From: Cyclobacteriaceae bacterium
GTDB lineage: Bacteria > Bacteroidota > Bacteroidia > Cytophagales > Cyclobacteriaceae
Assembly: GCA_035318625.1 (NCBI GenBank)
Contig: DATHEL010000002.1
Coordinates: 316,752-380,751 of the forward strand
Length of the DNA: 64,000 nt
Reading direction: 5' to 3'
The notes beneath the pieces are model-generated. The model was given only the letters and a program-made list of their open reading frames with translations. It did no database searches and was not told the origin of the DNA. Below, in pieces: positions 10,310 through 17,205 of the stretch. Position numbers and translations under genes: made by a program. Within the stretch, counting starts at the first letter, position 1. Each line of letters starts with the position of its first letter.

Positions 10310-10648
10310 ATGCAGACCCGAAGAGATGTCTTTCAGGCTATTTCTGATCCTACGCGCAGGGACATCATAAACCTGATCGCCTTTCAGTCGATGAACCTGA
10401 ATTCGATCGCTGAGAACTTCGATGTGAGCCGGCCGGCAATTTCCCAGCACATCAAGATCCTCATCGAATGCGGATTGGTGACCATCAAAAAACAGGGACG
10501 CGAACGATTTGCCGAAGCAACGCTCAAACCGCTCCACGCCATCACCGACTGGATCGAACCATTCCGGAGACATTTGGACGAACGCTATTCGGCGCTGGAT
10601 GAAGTACTGGAAGAGCTAAAAACGAAAAAAAAGAAACGAAGACATTAA
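10310..10648 (+). CDS. ArsR/SmtB family transcriptional regulator
   Basis: VFQAISDPTRRDI, SRPAISQHIKIL, KQGRER winged HTH. Confidence 0.93.
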   Translation: MQTRRDVFQAISDPTRRDIINLIAFQSMNLNSIAENFDVSRPAISQHIKILIECGLVTIKKQGRERFAEATLKPLHAITDWIEPFRRHLDERYSALDEVLEELKTKKKKRRH

Positions 10649-10689
10649 CAACCAATATCCAATTCCAATATCCGATAACCAATAATCTT

Positions 10690-11178
10690 ATGGCACAGAA
10701 AAACAATAAGACACAACTTACTGTCGAACCCGGAAAGCAAGAACTCATCGTTGTCAGGGAATTCGACGCACCACGCGAACTGGTATTCAAAGCTTTTACC
10801 GACAAGAAGCTGGTCGCCAAATGGCTCAGCCCGAAGAAGCTGAAGATAAAGATCCACAAGTTCGAACCGAGGACCGGCGGCTCATGGCACTACTCGCACA
10901 TCGATGAGAATGGAAACGAATATTCATTCCATGGCGTGAATCACGATGTAACAGCTCCGGAACGCATCATTCAGACTTTCGAATTCGACGGCCTTCCGGA
11001 AAAAGGACACGTTACCCTGGAGACCTCACGCTTTGAAGAGCTGCCTGGCAACCGTACCCGCCTGGTCAACCTGACGGTGTTCCAGACTGTCGCCGACCGC
11101 GACGGCATGGTGGCTGCAGGAATGGAAGGTGGGATGAACGAAGCGTATGACCAGCTCGATGCGCTGTTGGCATCTTAA
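10690..11178 (+). CDS. SRPBCC/AHSA1 (START-fold) ligand-binding protein
   Basis: REFDAPRELVFKAFTD...W, GGSWHY, PERIIQTFEF, GMEGG; the usual partner of this type of ArsR. Confidence 0.92.
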   Translation: MAQKNNKTQLTVEPGKQELIVVREFDAPRELVFKAFTDKKLVAKWLSPKKLKIKIHKFEPRTGGSWHYSHIDENGNEYSFHGVNHDVTAPERIIQTFEFDGLPEKGHVTLETSRFEELPGNRTRLVNLTVFQTVADRDGMVAAGMEGGMNEAYDQLDALLAS

Positions 11179-11243: not shown

Positions 11244-11251
11244 TAAAAAAG

Positions 11252-11324
11252 AGCGGGAAACGAGGCTCGAACTCGCGACCCTCAGCTTGGGAAGCTGATG
11301 CTCTACCAACTGAGCTACTCCCGC
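11252..11324 (-). tRNA. tRNA-Gly (anticodon CCC), CCA not encoded
   Basis: Reverse complement reads GCGGGAGTAGCTCAGTTGGTAGAGCATCAGC-TTCCCAA-GCTGAGGGTCGCGAGTTCGAGCCTCGTTTCCCGCT, giving a complete cloverleaf. Confidence 0.97.
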
Positions 11325-11356: not shown

Positions 11357-11776
11357 TTATACTCCCGTCTTGGTAACTACGATGATCAAAAAACCTGTCA
11401 GTAAAATTCCAAGCTCCAGTATCGTGGCCCAATATTTTGCAACGAAGGGGACATTCCTCCGAAGCCAGTTTGCTTTCTTGGACTGGTCGCCTGCCATAGC
11501 CTGCCGGTGCTGTTGCTCTTTGCGCTCGGCCGTTCGCTTATCGCTATTTGCTTCTTTTAGATAGTCCGGCCGGAAGACCAGTGCAAATATCCAGGCGCCG
11601 TAAATAATCACTCCGATAAGGATCTTCAGTCCGCCGAAGCACACGGCCGCCATTCCAAGGATGCTCAGGAAACTGGTATTGAATGTCCAGAAAAAGAGGT
11701 AGCCCATTGACGCGAAGGCTAGACCGATGACGATGTGTTCAAAAAAAGGTGTGGCTTTTTGGAGGAAAGAACTCAT
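11357..11776 (-). CDS. Hypothetical small membrane protein (about 139 aa)
   Basis: The ATG at 11776 (MSSFLQK...) gives two or three hydrophobic segments, a charged linker and a C-terminal TM segment. The ORF-track extension to 11872 looks non-coding. Confidence 0.6.
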   Translation of the reverse strand: MSSFLQKATPFFEHIVIGLAFASMGYLFFWTFNTSFLSILGMAAVCFGGLKILIGVIIYGAWIFALVFRPDYLKEANSDKRTAERKEQQHRQAMAGDQSKKANWLRRNVPFVAKYWATILELGILLTGFLIIVVTKTGV

Positions 11777-12048
11777 GCAGGGCTGGGCCGTAGTACGGGC
11801 TTTATTCTTGTTAAAGCCGAATGGTAAACGCGGGCAAATATCTGGTTTAAAAGTGACTTCTCCGAAGGGCACCGAAGCCCCCGGAATCGTTGCGGCTCAC
11901 TTTCGTCTCGTGTTGATACAGATTGTGCAAAATTGGGAGCCCCGGCCTCATCCAGTTAAGAAATCTGCACCCTGATGGCAATATTTTCTATATTTAGTGT
12001 ACCTAAAATCCCCGGCCCGCGACTTGTAATACGCGGCTAAAATTTGCT

Positions 12049-12669
12049 TTGAAGAGAACAGTTGTTGTTTTTTTACTCATTGGCATATTTTCAGCCATTG
12101 CCTGCTTATTCTGGTTCCAGGGTATGCGATACCTTCTGCCTACGCCGGTGCCTGAAAACTACCAGGTGGTTCTTCCCAACGAGGTGATTCGCTACGATAG
12201 CGCCCTGCTACCGCAACAATATCCGCGACCCAAGCTCCTGCATTTTTTTAACCCCGATTGTCCCTGCTCCCGATTCAACATTAAACACTTTCAGTCGCTT
12301 GAAAAACAATATGGCAGCAAAGTGGACTTTTTCGTCGTCGTTGTAAGCAATGAAAAAGTAAGATCGGCAAAAAGGCTGATTGGAACGGATATAAAAATAT
12401 TGGTAGACCAAGGTGAGAAGCTTGCAAAGGCATGCGGGGTGTACTCGACGCCTCAGGCAGCCGTCATCCAAAAAACCAATCAACTCTACTATCGCGGCAA
12501 CTACAACCGGTCGAGGTATTGCACCGATAAGAACAGCAACTACGTACAGATGGCCCTGGATTCGCTGATGGAAATAAAAGGCCCGCCTCAGTTCAGCCAG
12601 CTGGCCACCCAGTCGTATGGATGCGGCATCTCGACTGACAAAGAAGACAGTTTTTTCGGACTGCCATGA
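12049..12669 (+). CDS. Membrane-anchored thioredoxin/AhpC-like fold protein (DUF6436-like)
   Basis: N-terminal TM segment, FFNPDCPCSRF, TPQAAVI (cis-Pro loop), LYYRG, and C-terminal YGC. TTG start. Confidence 0.75.
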   Translation: MKRTVVVFLLIGIFSAIACLFWFQGMRYLLPTPVPENYQVVLPNEVIRYDSALLPQQYPRPKLLHFFNPDCPCSRFNIKHFQSLEKQYGSKVDFFVVVVSNEKVRSAKRLIGTDIKILVDQGEKLAKACGVYSTPQAAVIQKTNQLYYRGNYNRSRYCTDKNSNYVQMALDSLMEIKGPPQFSQLATQSYGCGISTDKEDSFFGLP

Positions 12670-13631
12670 ATCACGAACAGAACGCGACTGATTTCGCCTT
12701 GAGCCGGGAAGAAATAACCCATCTCTATCAGGGCATTCATGCCAGGGCTGACAAGCTTACGGAAGGGGTGCTGTACATTATGTTTGCCTTTGGCATTTGT
12801 ATAGCCTTTTTCTACGATACGTGGCTAATAGCGTTCGGCGTTGGCGGACTTTGTCTGGCAGCCTACTACGTTAGCAAGCATTTCCTTCCCGGGTCGAACC
12901 TGTATCAATACATCCTTAGCGCCGTCTCGGCGATCCTGGCCGCCCAATACATTTATCAAATGCATGGAATGGCTGAAATGCATTTCTGGGTATTTATTAG
13001 CTCTACGATATTGATCATTTATCAAAATTGGAAATTGCAAATACCCCTGATCGTACTCGTCGTCGTTCATCATGGATCATTTGCATACCTGCAGTATATC
13101 GGGTACAAAGAGATCTATTTCACACAACTCAACTACATGGATCTCACGACGTTCTTCTTCCATGGTATTCTGGCTTCGTGCGTGTGTCTTGTCTCCGCCA
13201 TTTGGAGCGCAAACATCCATAACCGGACGATGCACGATGCCCAGAACCTTAAAATGATGACTCAACTGCAGTCAGAGCTGCGACAAAAGAATGAGGAGCT
13301 CAGTGCATCGGAAGAAGAGTTGGTGGCTTCCTCCGAGGAACTCCGCCAGATCAATGACAACCTGAACATGCTGGTCGAAAACCGGACGCAAGTGATCATC
13401 GATCAAAACAAAAAGCTCGTCAATTACGCGTTCACAAGCGCACACAAGGTCCGAAGTCCGCTCGCAAGGATCCTTGGTCTGGTAAACCTGATCAGCCACG
13501 AAATCTCCCTAACAGAAAAGGGAAAGGAGCTCAACAACCATCTTCATATATCTGCCAACGAGCTCGACGATATGCTGCGGGATGCCAGACGCAACCTCGA
13601 CGAGTCGGATATTGACCCCAGTCAGAGGTAA
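12666..13631 (+). CDS. Multi-TM sensor protein with a coiled coil and C-terminal HisKA/H-box but no HATPase domain
   Basis: About 5-6 TM segments with MHF, YQNW, VHH and FFHG; coiled coil NEELSASEEELVASSEELRQINDNL; AHKVRSPLARILGL; stop about 55 aa later with no N/G boxes. Confidence 0.8.
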   Translation: MNHEQNATDFALSREEITHLYQGIHARADKLTEGVLYIMFAFGICIAFFYDTWLIAFGVGGLCLAAYYVSKHFLPGSNLYQYILSAVSAILAAQYIYQMHGMAEMHFWVFISSTILIIYQNWKLQIPLIVLVVVHHGSFAYLQYIGYKEIYFTQLNYMDLTTFFFHGILASCVCLVSAIWSANIHNRTMHDAQNLKMMTQLQSELRQKNEELSASEEELVASSEELRQINDNLNMLVENRTQVIIDQNKKLVNYAFTSAHKVRSPLARILGLVNLISHEISLTEKGKELNNHLHISANELDDMLRDARRNLDESDIDPSQR

Positions 13632-13773: not shown

Positions 13774-16700
13774 ATGAAAAATACGCGGCGTTCGCTCAAG
13801 GAGAGGTATACAATTTTCATCGCATCTATAATCTTCATCATCATCGCCATCCAGGCTGTCGTCCAGTACGACCTCGATCAGCAAACGGAAGACGCCAAGC
13901 TGATCAACATCGCCGGCCGGCAAAGGACGCTCAGCCAGCGCATTGCAAAACTGATGATGTACATCGAGAAAGACGTCGACCAAGTGGGCGCTCCGAATCC
14001 CGAACGGCACCAGATCGACACCCTGCGAAAGGCCGTCAACGAATGGAAGAGCGTTCATCATTTCCTCTCCGACCGTGCCGAAGCAGGCCAAGACAGCCCG
14101 ATGGTCGACTCTCTTCTTCAGGTCAGCGGCAAATACATAGAAACCATCGCCGCCGTGTGTGAAGTTGTTTTCGACAAGCCCGACGCCACCAACGTATATG
14201 CCGCGACAAAGGAGATAGCCAGCACGGAGATCTTCTTCCTGCTCACGATGGAACGTACCGTGAATCAATATCAGCGTGAAGCCGAAGACAAGCTGAGTAC
14301 CCTCAAGCGGATCGAGCTGATCCTGTCGGGCGTAGCATTGGTCGTCATCATTCTCGAATTCATTTTCTTTTTCCTTCCGACGCTCAACAAGCTTCGCAAC
14401 AACAACGCGAAGCTGTCGAAGCTGAACAGGAGGCTAGTCACGTCGAATAGTCACCTGGCCGCGTCTGAGGAAGAGATCCGTACACACCTCGAGCAGATCA
14501 GTGAGCTTCAGATCATCGTCGAGGCAAGAGAACGGCAGTTGCGTGAGCTGGTGGAGACTGCTACCGATATGATCTATGAGCTCGACGAAGCGGGAAAGTT
14601 CTCCTATGTCAACCCCGTCCTGGAGAGCGTCACCGGGTACACTCAGAAAGAGCTCCTGACGAAACAATACTGGGACGTGGTTCATCCCGACGAGAGAAAA
14701 CAAGTGGTCGCTTTCTATATCGATCAACGGAACACGCGCAAAGAGACCAGCTCGCTCCGGTTTCGTATCGTCACCAAAGCCGGAAAGCTACTGTGGGTCG
14801 ATCAGAATGTGAGAATGTTCTTCAAGGATAAGTGGGCATATAAAGTAAACGTTGTCGCGCGCGACGTCACCAGGCTCCGCGAAGCAGAGATGCGCGTTGC
14901 CGAAAGCGAGCATCTCTTCAGGACACTTGCCGAAAACGCCCCGGTAGGGATCTTCCAGGCTGACACGACGGGCAAATGTATTTACGTGAACAAACGCTGG
15001 TGCAAGGTCAGCGGCCTCACCGAAGAACAGTCTCTCCAAGACGGATGGATGGCCGCTATGGCACCCGGCGACCGGGAGAAAATGGTCACGGAGTGGACCA
15101 GTGCCGTGGGCAGCAACCGGGAGTTTGAGATGGAGCTGAAGTTTCAAACTCCAAGCGCCACCGAGCCCGAAACCTGGGTAAACGCACGCGCAGTTTCCCT
15201 TGTTGACGATAAAGGCAAAATCACGGGTTTCCTGGGCACCGTGATCGACATTACCGCCCTTAAATCAACCCAGCATAAGCTCGCCGAAAGTGAAAAGTTG
15301 TACCGACTGCTGGCCACCAATTCGAAAGACCTCATTACACTGTATCGCGCCGACGATCATGCGACGCGCGTATTCATCTCCCCTTCCGTGACCGACATAC
15401 TTGGATATTCACCCGAGGAGCTCATCGGAAAATCACCGTTCGACATCATCGTGGATGACGATGCGAAACGGATGCAGTCTGAAACGCACCGCGTAACCCT
15501 CAGTGGACGTCCTGCAGCCGTCGAGTACCGGATACGGAAAAAAGACGGGTCGATCATCTGGTTGGAATCCAACTCCCATCCTTTCTTCGACAACGACGGG
15601 AACATGATCGGCTTCCAGACATCGGCAAGGGACGTCACCTTGCGAAAGGAATTCCAGCACGAGCTGATCCTCGCCAAGGAACGGGCCGAAGATGCCACTA
15701 AAATAAAGAGTCAGTTCCTCAGCATGATGAGTCATGAGATCCGTACCCCGATGAATGCCATCATCGGCCTTTCCAATCTCCTCCTCGACGACGACCCCAG
15801 GCCGGATCAGGTCGACAGTCTCGAGCTGCTCCGGTTCTCCGGGCACAACCTCCTTGCAATCCTCAACGACATTCTCGACTTCTCCAAGATCGAAGCCAAT
15901 AAGATCACCCTCGAACACATTGACTTCGATCTCGAATTGTCGATCGAAAACATTGTGAAGATGATGCTACCGAAAGGCGAAGAGAAAAGCATTTCGATCG
16001 AATACTCTTTCGATCCGCGCCTTCCCAGGGAAGTAAAAGCCGACCCGGTAAGGCTCAGTCAGGTCATGACAAACCTCATCAGCAACGCAGTCAAATTCAC
16101 TGAAAAGGGCGGCGTGACAGTTGAAGTGAGACACGGGGTGCCGAGCCAGCAATTGAATGGCCTCGAATATTTCTTTTACGATTTCAGGATCAAAGACAGC
16201 GGCATCGGTATTCCCGACGACAAGCTCAAGTCCATCTTCGAAAGTTTCTCGCAGGCAGCGAGCGACACCACGCGCAAGTTTGGCGGAACGGGATTGGGCC
16301 TCACCATCACCCGGCGATTGATCAACCTGATGGGAAGCGACATCCAGGTCACCAGTAAGCTCGGGGAAGGATCCGACTTTCATTTCACCCTGAAGCTGGA
16401 AAAAGGAAAGGTGATAAGGCAAACGCCCAAAGAAACCGACAAGGCAAAGAATCTCCTCAAAGACCGGAACATCTTAATCCTGCTGGTGGAAGACAACCGG
16501 GTGAACCAGGTGGTGGCCACCAATTTCTTCCGTCGGTGGGGTGTTCAGTACGATGTGGCGAACAATGGCCGCGAGGCTGTCGAAATGGTCACCAAAAAGA
16601 TGTACGATATGGTGTTCATGGACCTGCAGATGCCTGAGATGGACGGCTACCAGGCTACGCATGCCATCCGGCAGATGAGTGATTCATATTTCAAAAAGCT

Positions 16701-17205
16701 TCCTATTGTGGCGCTCACGGCATCCGCCATGACGAGTATGCGCGACAAGGTGATGGCCTCGGGTATGACCGACTTCATGACCAAGCCGTTCCAGCCCGAA
16801 GAACTCCAGCAGATTATTCATAAATACACAACTCCCGAAAAATCTGCAGACATGGTCAGTTCCATTTCCGACAGCCTCGACATGTACACCGAAGGCAACC
16901 TGGATTTCAAAAAAGAGCTGATCGGTCACCTGATGAAGAACATCGAAGAGCTGCGATCGTCACTGACTATATCGATCAAAGAAAAAAACCCGGTAACATT
17001 CCATTCGGCAGCCCACAAATGCAAGACTACGCTGACCATGCTCGGTGACCACGAGCTGTTGACGGTGGTTGAAGAAGTGAAGCAGGCGCTCGAAGAACAA
17101 CGCAATGGCGCGTTGAGCACGATCCTCGATCAGAAGTTCACGAAGCTTGTGAAAGAAACTATGGATGGTCTGACCGAAGAGCTGGCGAGTATCAAGACAC
17201 GCTAG
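13774..17205 (+). CDS. Hybrid histidine kinase: NarX/PilJ-type periplasmic sensor, 3 PAS, HisKA, HATPase, REC, HPt
   Basis: INIAGRQRTLSQRIAK between two TM segments; three PAS/PAC repeats; SHEIRTPMN; NLISNAVKF; DSGIGI; GGTGLGL; FMDLQMPEMDG; AHKCKTT. Confidence 0.95.
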   Translation: MKNTRRSLKERYTIFIASIIFIIIAIQAVVQYDLDQQTEDAKLINIAGRQRTLSQRIAKLMMYIEKDVDQVGAPNPERHQIDTLRKAVNEWKSVHHFLSDRAEAGQDSPMVDSLLQVSGKYIETIAAVCEVVFDKPDATNVYAATKEIASTEIFFLLTMERTVNQYQREAEDKLSTLKRIELILSGVALVVIILEFIFFFLPTLNKLRNNNAKLSKLNRRLVTSNSHLAASEEEIRTHLEQISELQIIVEARERQLRELVETATDMIYELDEAGKFSYVNPVLESVTGYTQKELLTKQYWDVVHPDERKQVVAFYIDQRNTRKETSSLRFRIVTKAGKLLWVDQNVRMFFKDKWAYKVNVVARDVTRLREAEMRVAESEHLFRTLAENAPVGIFQADTTGKCIYVNKRWCKVSGLTEEQSLQDGWMAAMAPGDREKMVTEWTSAVGSNREFEMELKFQTPSATEPETWVNARAVSLVDDKGKITGFLGTVIDITALKSTQHKLAESEKLYRLLATNSKDLITLYRADDHATRVFISPSVTDILGYSPEELIGKSPFDIIVDDDAKRMQSETHRVTLSGRPAAVEYRIRKKDGSIIWLESNSHPFFDNDGNMIGFQTSARDVTLRKEFQHELILAKERAEDATKIKSQFLSMMSHEIRTPMNAIIGLSNLLLDDDPRPDQVDSLELLRFSGHNLLAILNDILDFSKIEANKITLEHIDFDLELSIENIVKMMLPKGEEKSISIEYSFDPRLPREVKADPVRLSQVMTNLISNAVKFTEKGGVTVEVRHGVPSQQLNGLEYFFYDFRIKDSGIGIPDDKLKSIFESFSQAASDTTRKFGGTGLGLTITRRLINLMGSDIQVTSKLGEGSDFHFTLKLEKGKVIRQTPKETDKAKNLLKDRNILILLVEDNRVNQVVATNFFRRWGVQYDVANNGREAVEMVTKKMYDMVFMDLQMPEMDGYQATHAIRQMSDSYFKKLPIVALTASAMTSMRDKVMASGMTDFMTKPFQPEELQQIIHKYTTPEKSADMVSSISDSLDMYTEGNLDFKKELIGHLMKNIEELRSSLTISIKEKNPVTFHSAAHKCKTTLTMLGDHELLTVVEEVKQALEEQRNGALSTILDQKFTKLVKETMDGLTEELASIKTR

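Follow-up and report, generated by a model that had tools for sequence, protein, structure and literature searches.

What can a membrane sensor do that carries the histidine box of a kinase and ends before any catalytic domain, and why should its gene overlap that of a thioredoxin-fold protein? The question is raised by two genes in a 64,000-nucleotide (nt) stretch of DNA from a Cyclobacteriaceae bacterium (contig DATHEL010000002.1, positions 316,752 to 380,751; hereafter the window), where the start of the second (gene B) overlaps the stop of the first (gene A) in an ATGA at 12666-12669. Gene A codes for a membrane-anchored protein of the DUF6436 family, and gene B for a six-helix membrane sensor that passes through a signaling helix into a dimerization and histidine phosphotransfer (DHp) hairpin. 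A preliminary description of the window, made from its letters alone, had singled out this pair, and all the coordinates and sequence features it gave for the two genes were reproduced. Both genes are real, because each has very many homologs (3,209 for gene A and 1,133 for gene B at E ≤ 1e-3). We propose that their products probably constitute a dedicated two-protein sensor of redox state or metals in the cell envelope, with a DHp-only output that acts in trans.

The output of gene B is a HisKA-type DHp hairpin. Its family profile matches the DHp sequences of kinases in the PDB (7z8n, E 7e-10; ERS1, 2e-6; RetS, 6dk7, 2e-4), and Foldseek places the hairpin on the DHp of ERS1 (4mtx) with a probability of 0.99 and a TMt of 0.85; the single sequence scores against Pfam HisKA with E 0.021 and 15.3 bits, below the 26.9-bit cut-off. 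The AlphaFold2 model, with a mean predicted local distance difference test score (pLDDT) of 86.3, shows a cytoplasmic amphipathic helix, six transmembrane (TM) helices, a long helix and a return helix; TM6 runs unbroken into a single helix (residues 160-279), and the return helix spans residues 284-314. Neither Pfam nor NCBIfam detects a HATPase domain in the protein, which ends 61 residues after His260. Across 44 orthologs, 60-82% identical to the window's protein, the H-K-V-R-S-P-L-A-R-I box is almost invariant, with Lys one residue after the histidine (H+1) in 42 and Ser at H+4 in 41 of them; R240 and T241 of the signaling helix are invariant, and the first DHp helix is as well conserved as the TM domain (0.86 vs 0.85). 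In HisKA kinases an acidic residue at H+1 is required for kinase activity, and Thr or Asn at H+4 for phosphatase activity (PMC3510030). Since gene B has no ATPase domain and carries Lys in place of the acidic H+1 residue, it cannot phosphorylate itself; thus, the loss of the catalytic and ATP-binding (CA) domain appears to have been accompanied by that of the kinase-specific H+1 residue, while His260 was kept. Because the box around this histidine is conserved even though self-phosphorylation is not possible, gene B most likely works in trans.

This architecture is not peculiar to the window. The best 120 of the 1,133 gene B homologs are 306-358 amino acids (aa) long, have no HATPase domain and all come from Cytophagales (Chryseolinea, Ohtaekwangia, Cyclobacteriaceae and Marivirga). 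A maximum-likelihood tree built on 161 membrane domains groups 23 DHp-only sequences, that of the window among them, in a single clade of 24 rows (support 100/96); the 24th row, L034, likewise has only a HisKA match, and the sister group of the clade carries PP2C outputs. The preliminary description had remarked on a DHp domain without N and G boxes, and the conservation of this organization in homologs means that it does not result from truncation. Elsewhere in the tree, a further, lone DHp-only sequence sits within the hybrid kinases of Mucilaginibacter. The genome of the Cyclobacteriaceae bacterium itself codes for two more proteins with such tails, a propeller/Y_Y_Y-like sensor and a tetratricopeptide repeat (TPR) protein, both with a TM helix, an EEL coiled coil, an ERT motif and an intact H-box and without a HATPase domain; similar tails occur in other Bacteroidota (L015, L016 and L018). 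Hence, the DHp-only output is a recurring feature of the Bacteroidota.

The product of gene A matches Pfam DUF6436 (PF20029) with E 8.3e-15 and 55.1 bits (gathering cut-off 27.3 bits), with weaker matches to Redoxin, Thioredoxin_2 and AhpC, and PF20029 was found in all 120 of the homologs listed (of 3,209). Its AlphaFold2 model (pLDDT 88.7) has a helix at residues 2-29 followed by a thioredoxin fold, for which Foldseek returns first the PRX-like or thioredoxin-like structural-genomics proteins 2ywo/2cvb, 3u5r and 2ywi and then ResA, StoA, DipZ-C and FetE (probability 1.0 to 2ywo, 3u5r, ResA, DipZ-C and StoA). A profile alignment sets the CNHC site of 2cvb against N68-P-D-C71, so that the first Cys of the CxxC is replaced by N68; the second (C71) is kept, and an added Cys73 makes the CPC of the motif N-P-D-C-P-C. 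We followed its conservation in 72 sequences from Bacteroidota and 51 from other phyla: C71 and C73 are present in 100% of both sets, and the canonical CxxC active site is absent from gene A across these 123 sequences. P72, S74, R75, F76, N77, the cis-Pro loop TPQ and the RGNYN..RYC stretch are likewise invariant or nearly so, and H65 is conserved at 92-99%. The GC at the position of Cys192 also occurs in the aligned 2ywi and 2cvb, and the conservation of C129 (in ACG) is limited to Bacteroidota. The CPC, which the preliminary description had called an unusual motif in a membrane-anchored Trx/AhpC-like fold, is thus among the most conserved positions of the family. In the anchor region F21, W22, P31 and P35 are invariant, and Y28, L30, T32 and P33 are conserved in at least 90%; the MKR N-terminus and the single helix suggest, by the positive-inside rule, that the N-terminus is cytoplasmic and the thioredoxin domain periplasmic. 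The TTG start is backed by homologs of 198-205 aa with the same conserved N-terminal anchor helix. The stored gene call for gene A (P0271) begins at Met26 and gives a protein of 181 aa that leaves out the membrane anchor (window 12049-12124).

The two genes travel together. A gene A-like gene lies directly upstream of the sensor on the same strand in 76 of 80 loci from Bacteroidota and in 57 of 80 from other phyla (Acidobacteriota, Planctomycetota, Armatimonadota, Abditibacteriota, Verrucomicrobiota, Gemmatimonadota, Myxococcota and Leptospiraceae), that is, in 133 of 160, and the pairing persists whatever output domain follows. This gene-neighborhood survey bears out the earlier suggestion that A and B are a co-conserved two-protein module. 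Cultured carriers of the pair include Chryseolinea serpens DSM 24574 and members of Mucilaginibacter, Larkinella and Dyadobacter. Some of the loci counted as having no gene A are on contigs that end too soon, and most of the remainder belong to one gemmatimonadotal clade (L110, L116, L117, L119-L121, L138, L145 and L167). In this clade the conserved turn between TM3 and TM4 of the sensor reads Q-x-[HQY]-G-Q-x-E-Q-H-F, with EQHF in place of EMHF, and several members have Q or Y instead of H100; in the loci with gene A, H100 is kept in 133 of 133 and M105 in 127 of 133. As these cases are phylogenetically clustered, the loss of gene A and the decay of the motif represent few independent events; their coincidence nevertheless points to a functional tie between gene A and the TM3-TM4 turn. 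An apparent fusion of the two genes in a metagenome-assembled genome of the Terriglobia (L166:2257-3603) was set aside as a probable assembly indel, its kinase part being frameshifted and a fusion being at odds with the topology.

The membrane domain with which gene A is paired does not correspond to a named family. Residues 34-184 of gene B have no match in Pfam-A or NCBIfam at E up to 1, and neither do 11 TM-only sequences of the family in Pfam or NCBIfam at the same threshold; a Foldseek search of the whole model against the PDB gave, for the membrane part, only coiled-coil noise (best E 0.6), in which the long helix may mask partial matches. The preliminary count of five or six TM segments holds as regards a multi-helix membrane part, the number of which the AlphaFold2 model refines to six (about residues 34-50, 53-73, 79-98, 105-119, 122-144 and 160-184). 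The distribution of charges in the loops fits a topology with both termini in the cytoplasm. The membrane histidines, whose conservation the same description had made a point of, are among the most conserved positions of the family: in the TM3-TM4 turn H100 (MHG; codon 12963-12965), G101, E104 and F107 are invariant, and M99, M105 and H106 (MHF; codon 12981-12983) are conserved in at least 90%; H136 in TM5 is invariant in Bacteroidota and in the other phyla, where its neighbor H135, a His in Bacteroidota, is mostly Gln; H166 is invariant, and T52 is invariant or nearly so across the family. In the modeled arrangement the M99-H106 turn and H166 would lie toward the periplasmic face, with H135 and H136 somewhat deeper.

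An exhaustive phmmer search with residues 1-195 of gene B, which gave 918 clusters at 50% identity, shows that the six-helix domain is a swappable input module present in at least eight phyla. It is N-terminal in 150 of the 150 clusters listed (of 918), in proteins of 127-1,297 aa. Among 85 representatives the outputs include HATPase_c (31), HisKA (29), PAS (about 24), GAF (23), SpoIIE of the PP2C type (9), receiver (7), methyl-accepting chemotaxis protein (MCP) signaling (5) and HisKA_3 (2) domains; the five MCP cases agree with the chemoreceptor outputs that the preliminary description had mentioned for a similar pair of membrane domain and Trx-like gene. Individual loci combine the TM domain with PAS and a kinase, with a HisKA_3 kinase, with two GAF domains, with PP2C or with hybrid kinases that bear receivers, and many members from Cytophagales end in GAF domains without a catalytic output. 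At E ≤ 1e-12 the domain was also recovered from 5 of 368 genomes of Myxococcia, in open frames of 183-716 aa; none of the class-wide matches could be assigned to Myxococcus, and RedC of the Myxococcus xanthus Red system, a conceivable relative, is reported to have 470 aa (PMC2755868). The gene A-like match in one large genome of this class encodes a PRX-like protein of the CPF type; its neighbor is a DsbD-like gene, and no such sensor follows it. Weak matches in Myxococcia represent a remote 'GGRIETHFHIF' membrane family, and in L230, L231, L233 and L234 a remote membrane domain (LIHLTGGRIETHFHIF ... YRDWKVLL ... DH) is joined to kinase or MCP outputs; no thioredoxin-like gene precedes it in L230, the sole locus read on both sides. 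This remote domain may be a sister family of that in gene B.

We picture the proposed sensor as follows. Gene A would be held by its single N-terminal helix with the thioredoxin domain in the periplasm, presenting the N-x-x-C-P-C motif and two further invariant Cys, and gene B would form a dimeric six-helix domain with H100, E104, H106, H136, H166, M99 and M105 in the outer leaflet or the periplasmic turn, adjoining the expected position of gene A. This His/Glu/Met cluster could hold a metal or another redox-active cofactor, or it could read the thiol or disulfide state of gene A; alternatively, the contact between the two proteins might itself be governed by the thiol state of the CPC. By analogy, copper sites and the logic by which Cox11 serves CuB come to mind in view of the Met-His pairs and the CxC partner, and heme or a pure thiol switch may also account for the sensing step. 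A change at the cluster would be conveyed through TM6 and the continuous signaling helix to whatever output domain follows. In the Cytophagales form, where this is the DHp alone, the conserved His260 box suggests phosphoryl handling or the binding of a receiver domain, and gene B could act as a signal-gated phospho-acceptor or phosphotransferase, as a phosphatase or as a partner that sequesters either a response regulator or the receiver domain of some hybrid kinase whose gene lies elsewhere.

Which protein, then, might receive the signal? The preliminary description favored the hybrid kinase whose gene starts 142 nt downstream of gene B in the same orientation; no terminator-like site separates the two. 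This kinase has an independent input of its own, since a PilJ-type periplasmic domain (PF13675, E 4.5e-8), flanked by two hydrophobic segments, lies at its N-terminus (window 13774-14400). It follows the A-B pair in two relatives (80% and 71% identity; P0003 and P0025), together with the same flanking sugar-transporter gene, so that the shared order looks like general local synteny; a third relative (73% identity; P0013) has a methionine synthase in its place. The proposal that this kinase is the partner thus finds no support beyond close relatives: it is absent from the 73% relative and from the 23 genus-level (Chryseolinea) loci compared, and, unsupported as a conserved partner by synteny, it stays a candidate. 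Its DHp is not among the 15 matches to gene B in the bacterium's own genome, where the full-length proteins nearest to gene B in their DHp are PAS kinases that carry a box of the type seen in gene B. A split kinase, with the CA domain supplied by a separate protein, was also considered and rejected, the two small HATPase open reading frames (ORFs) of the genome being RsbW-type anti-sigma-like by eye.

Several observations weigh against a phosphoryl-handling envelope sensor of the kind we propose. The clustering of the histidines in gene B is read from modeled helix positions, and four bacteroidotal loci retain an intact motif without an adjacent gene A. At H+4, gene B mostly has Ser where phosphatase-competent HisKA proteins have Thr or Asn (PMC3510030). 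No downstream neighbor is conserved in the 23 genus-level loci, in which kinases make up 4 of 35 ORFs, mostly on the other strand. Finally, in another genus of Bacteroidota (L013 and L017), the H-box histidine has been exchanged for Tyr or Leu in short-tailed relatives of gene B (281-284 aa); a DUF6436 gene precedes these relatives, and a 200-aa Aer-PAS-like protein is encoded downstream, directly in L013 and after a 114-aa ORF in L017. Having lost the histidine, these proteins show that a phosphoryl-independent role exists in the family. Such a role for the window's protein, with the C-terminal hairpin serving as a dimerization or docking scaffold that makes protein contacts only, like the GAF-only members, would also accommodate the frequent GAF endings in Cytophagales and the departures of H+1 and H+4 from the catalytic consensus (PMC3510030). 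We hold it to be quite unlikely here, given that the His260 box is invariant in 44 of 44 orthologs and the first DHp helix is as conserved as the sensor domain. The notion of a truncated kinase gene, be it a pseudogene or an artefact of assembly or frameshift, has nothing but the missing HATPase domain to recommend it; the lengths of the homologs, the strong conservation of the tail in orthologs and the support for the DHp-only clade rule it out, as does the clean stop followed by 142 non-coding nt, and its probability is negligible.

A stronger competitor, though still an unlikely one, is that gene B inhibits or modulates a full-length kinase as its heterodimer partner: the two DHp domains would pair, and autophosphorylation of the kinase would be blocked or tuned according to the signal perceived by A and B. 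The partner could be the neighboring hybrid kinase, which adjoins on the same strand without a terminator-like site and is kept in two close relatives, or a bacteroidotal PAS kinase with a similar SHNLRAP box, such as those that are nearest to gene B in its own genome; the profile match to the RetS DHp is in keeping with this idea. However, a pure blocker would need neither an invariant His260 nor the near-invariant HKVRSPLARI box, and the hybrid kinase is both missing from the own-genome DHp matches and no longer adjacent in other relatives. We therefore rank a role as phospho-acceptor, phosphatase or sequestering partner ahead of heterodimer inhibition, and the latter ahead of a phosphoryl-independent scaffold. 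It is also conceivable that gene A has no part in sensing but is a common thiol-disulfide oxidoreductase of the envelope, serving for instance the maturation of cytochromes or copper proteins like ResA or TlpA, and that it shares no more than an operon with gene B: its fold is TlpA/ResA/DsbE-like, and in Bacillus a gene of this kind is linked to one for a kinase in the res operon. This is highly improbable in view of the way gene A tracks the six-helix domain in eight or more phyla, whichever output domain follows, the failure to keep a canonical CxxC, the single clear DUF6436 copy of the genome being the one at this locus, and the coincidence of gene A loss with decay of the periplasmic motif of gene B.

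Returning to a two-protein sensor with a trans-acting DHp, we can set its parts beside known systems. Gene B shares with HisKA kinases the succession of sensor helices, signaling helix and two-helix DHp with an A-H-x-x-R-x-P-L H-box, and relatives with the same six-helix domain are full kinases, some of them hybrids with receivers; it differs in the missing CA/HATPase domain and in the Lys in place of Glu or Asp at H+1. PhyT, Spo0B and ChpT belong to the dimeric histidine carriers of the DHp type, which do not phosphorylate themselves and shuttle phosphoryl groups between receivers. All three retain a degenerate CA-like domain, and none of them is known to have a sensor domain of several helices or a partner of the thioredoxin type. 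PhyT itself is a membrane-bound kinase-like protein that acts as a histidine phosphotransferase and as a factor sequestering a regulator (PMC5898713). Gene B can be likened to all three as a DHp carrier, its phosphotransfer role being a prediction. RetS inhibits GacS via DHp-DHp contacts and keeps its CA and receiver domains; gene B resembles it in the possible control of another kinase at the level of the DHp, to which the weak profile match alludes, and differs in having neither of these domains.

On the input side, PrrC/SenC is a Sco-type thioredoxin-fold copper protein encoded beside the six-TM redox-responsive kinase PrrB/RegB. The logic of the gene pairing is the same as for A and B, whereas the Sco site is a CxxxC with a His and not a CPC; the membrane domains of RegB and gene B are unrelated so far as the lack of a family match goes, their homology not having been compared directly. 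The MHYT domain (PF03707), reportedly described by Galperin in 2001, likewise serves as an input to varied outputs; it has six TM helices and, close to the outer face, Met-His motifs that were proposed to bind a metal. Gene B has in common with it the six TM helices, the position of the Met-His motifs and the variety of outputs; however, neither it nor the 11 TM-only sequences match PF03707 at E up to 1, and its histidines are not arranged as three two-helix repeats with an MHYT motif in each. Gene A has the fold of TlpA, ResA, DsbE and the PRX-like proteins 2cvb, 2ywi and 3u5r and shares with them the TPQ of the cis-Pro loop as well as a C-terminal GC; it departs from them by Asn for the first Cys, the CPC and the extra Cys158. 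Cox11, with its CFCF motif, delivers copper to the buried three-histidine CuB site. A single-anchor periplasmic CxC protein beside a cluster of membrane histidines is what A and B may have in common with it; Cox11 has an Ig-like fold, and the analogy is one of logic only. Literature searches returned nothing relevant on a thioredoxin-like partner with a His-rich TM sensor, and for DUF6436 only a list entry turned up.

Gene A, then, is a DUF6436 protein of thioredoxin fold that does not have a CxxC, and gene B has a HisKA-type DHp and falls outside the definition of a histidine kinase. A sensor that combines an accessory periplasmic protein with an output of the two-component type is in itself familiar; the input domain is undescribed, and the transmitter stands out for having no kinase. 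Of all parts of bacterial signal transduction, the input domains and the signals they perceive are the least understood, and the unit described here is a compact, strongly conserved two-gene input that recurs in many phyla of soil and water, where it is connected to kinases, PP2C phosphatases, GAF proteins or chemoreceptors. Its conserved residues (four Cys in gene A; four His and one Glu in gene B) furnish testable predictions of a metal or redox center, and the DHp-only clade is a natural case for studying what a histidine phosphotransfer domain does without an ATPase. As a more far-reaching, tentative and rather unlikely idea, DUF6436 and the six-helix domain might represent an undescribed class of membrane metallo- or redox-cofactor sensors with a new fold, of which the DHp-only form would be a kinase-less transmitter. 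If so, copper would be the most attractive guess for the cofactor on account of the Met-His pairs and the CxC partner, and gene A would serve the sensor specifically, as its loader or as a redox relay. Small molecules with redox activity, or gases, would then be perceived by the module at the membrane's outer face in no fewer than eight phyla, and the DHp-only form of Cytophagales would gate the flow of phosphoryl groups between other proteins rather than generate it.

Table 1. Features of the gene A-gene B locus and related proteins (positions in the window, or in the contigs C1 and C10 of the same genome where so marked)
Feature	Position	Strand	Basis
Gene A: DUF6436 thioredoxin-fold protein, 206 aa, TTG start	12049..12669	+	ORF list and sequence
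A: membrane anchor (about aa 5-24), FW, and Y-x-LPTPxP just outside the membrane	12061..12153	+	conservation
A: C71-P72-C73 motif within HFFNPDCPCSRFN	12259..12267	+	conservation
A: Cys158 (RGNYNxSRYC)	12520..12522	+	98-100% conserved, 72 Bacteroidota and 51 other-phyla sequences
A: invariant Cys192 (YGC)	12622..12624	+	72 Bacteroidota and 51 other-phyla sequences
Gene B: 6-TM sensor, signaling helix and DHp-only output, 321 aa	12666..13631	+	ORF list and sequence
B: unnamed six-helix membrane sensor domain	12765..13217	+	AlphaFold2, pLDDT mostly above 90
B: M99-H100-G-M-A-E104-M105-H106-F107 turn, TM3-TM4, periplasmic face (predicted)	12960..12986	+	conservation
B: H135-H136 (VHH) in TM5	13068..13073	+	conservation
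B: H166 (FFHG), periplasmic end of TM6 (predicted)	13161..13163	+	invariant
B: cytoplasmic coiled coil/signaling helix (EEL repeats, NRT = ERT-like motif)	13218..13415	+	AlphaFold2
B: HisKA-type DHp hairpin, no CA domain	13416..13607	+	profile and Foldseek
B: His260, putative phospho-acceptor (A-H-K-V-R-S-P-L-A-R-I)	13443..13445	+	44/44 orthologs
Hybrid kinase, 1,143 aa: PilJ-like sensor, 3 PAS, HisKA, HATPase, REC, Hpt-like C-terminus	13774..17205	+	Pfam
DHp-only tail, 881-aa propeller/Y_Y_Y-like sensor	C1:1202770-1205412	+	own genome
DHp-only tail, 586-aa TPR protein	C10:185385-187142	-	own genome

Upstream of the pair, an ORF for a 171-aa membrane protein (window 11357-11872, minus strand) lies just before gene A. 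It is preceded by a tRNA-Gly gene with the anticodon CCC (11251-11324, minus strand), which separates it from genes for an ArsR-family regulator and then an AHSA1/SRPBCC protein (10310-11178, plus strand). The ArsR and AHSA1/SRPBCC genes are also found upstream of the A-B pair in one relative.

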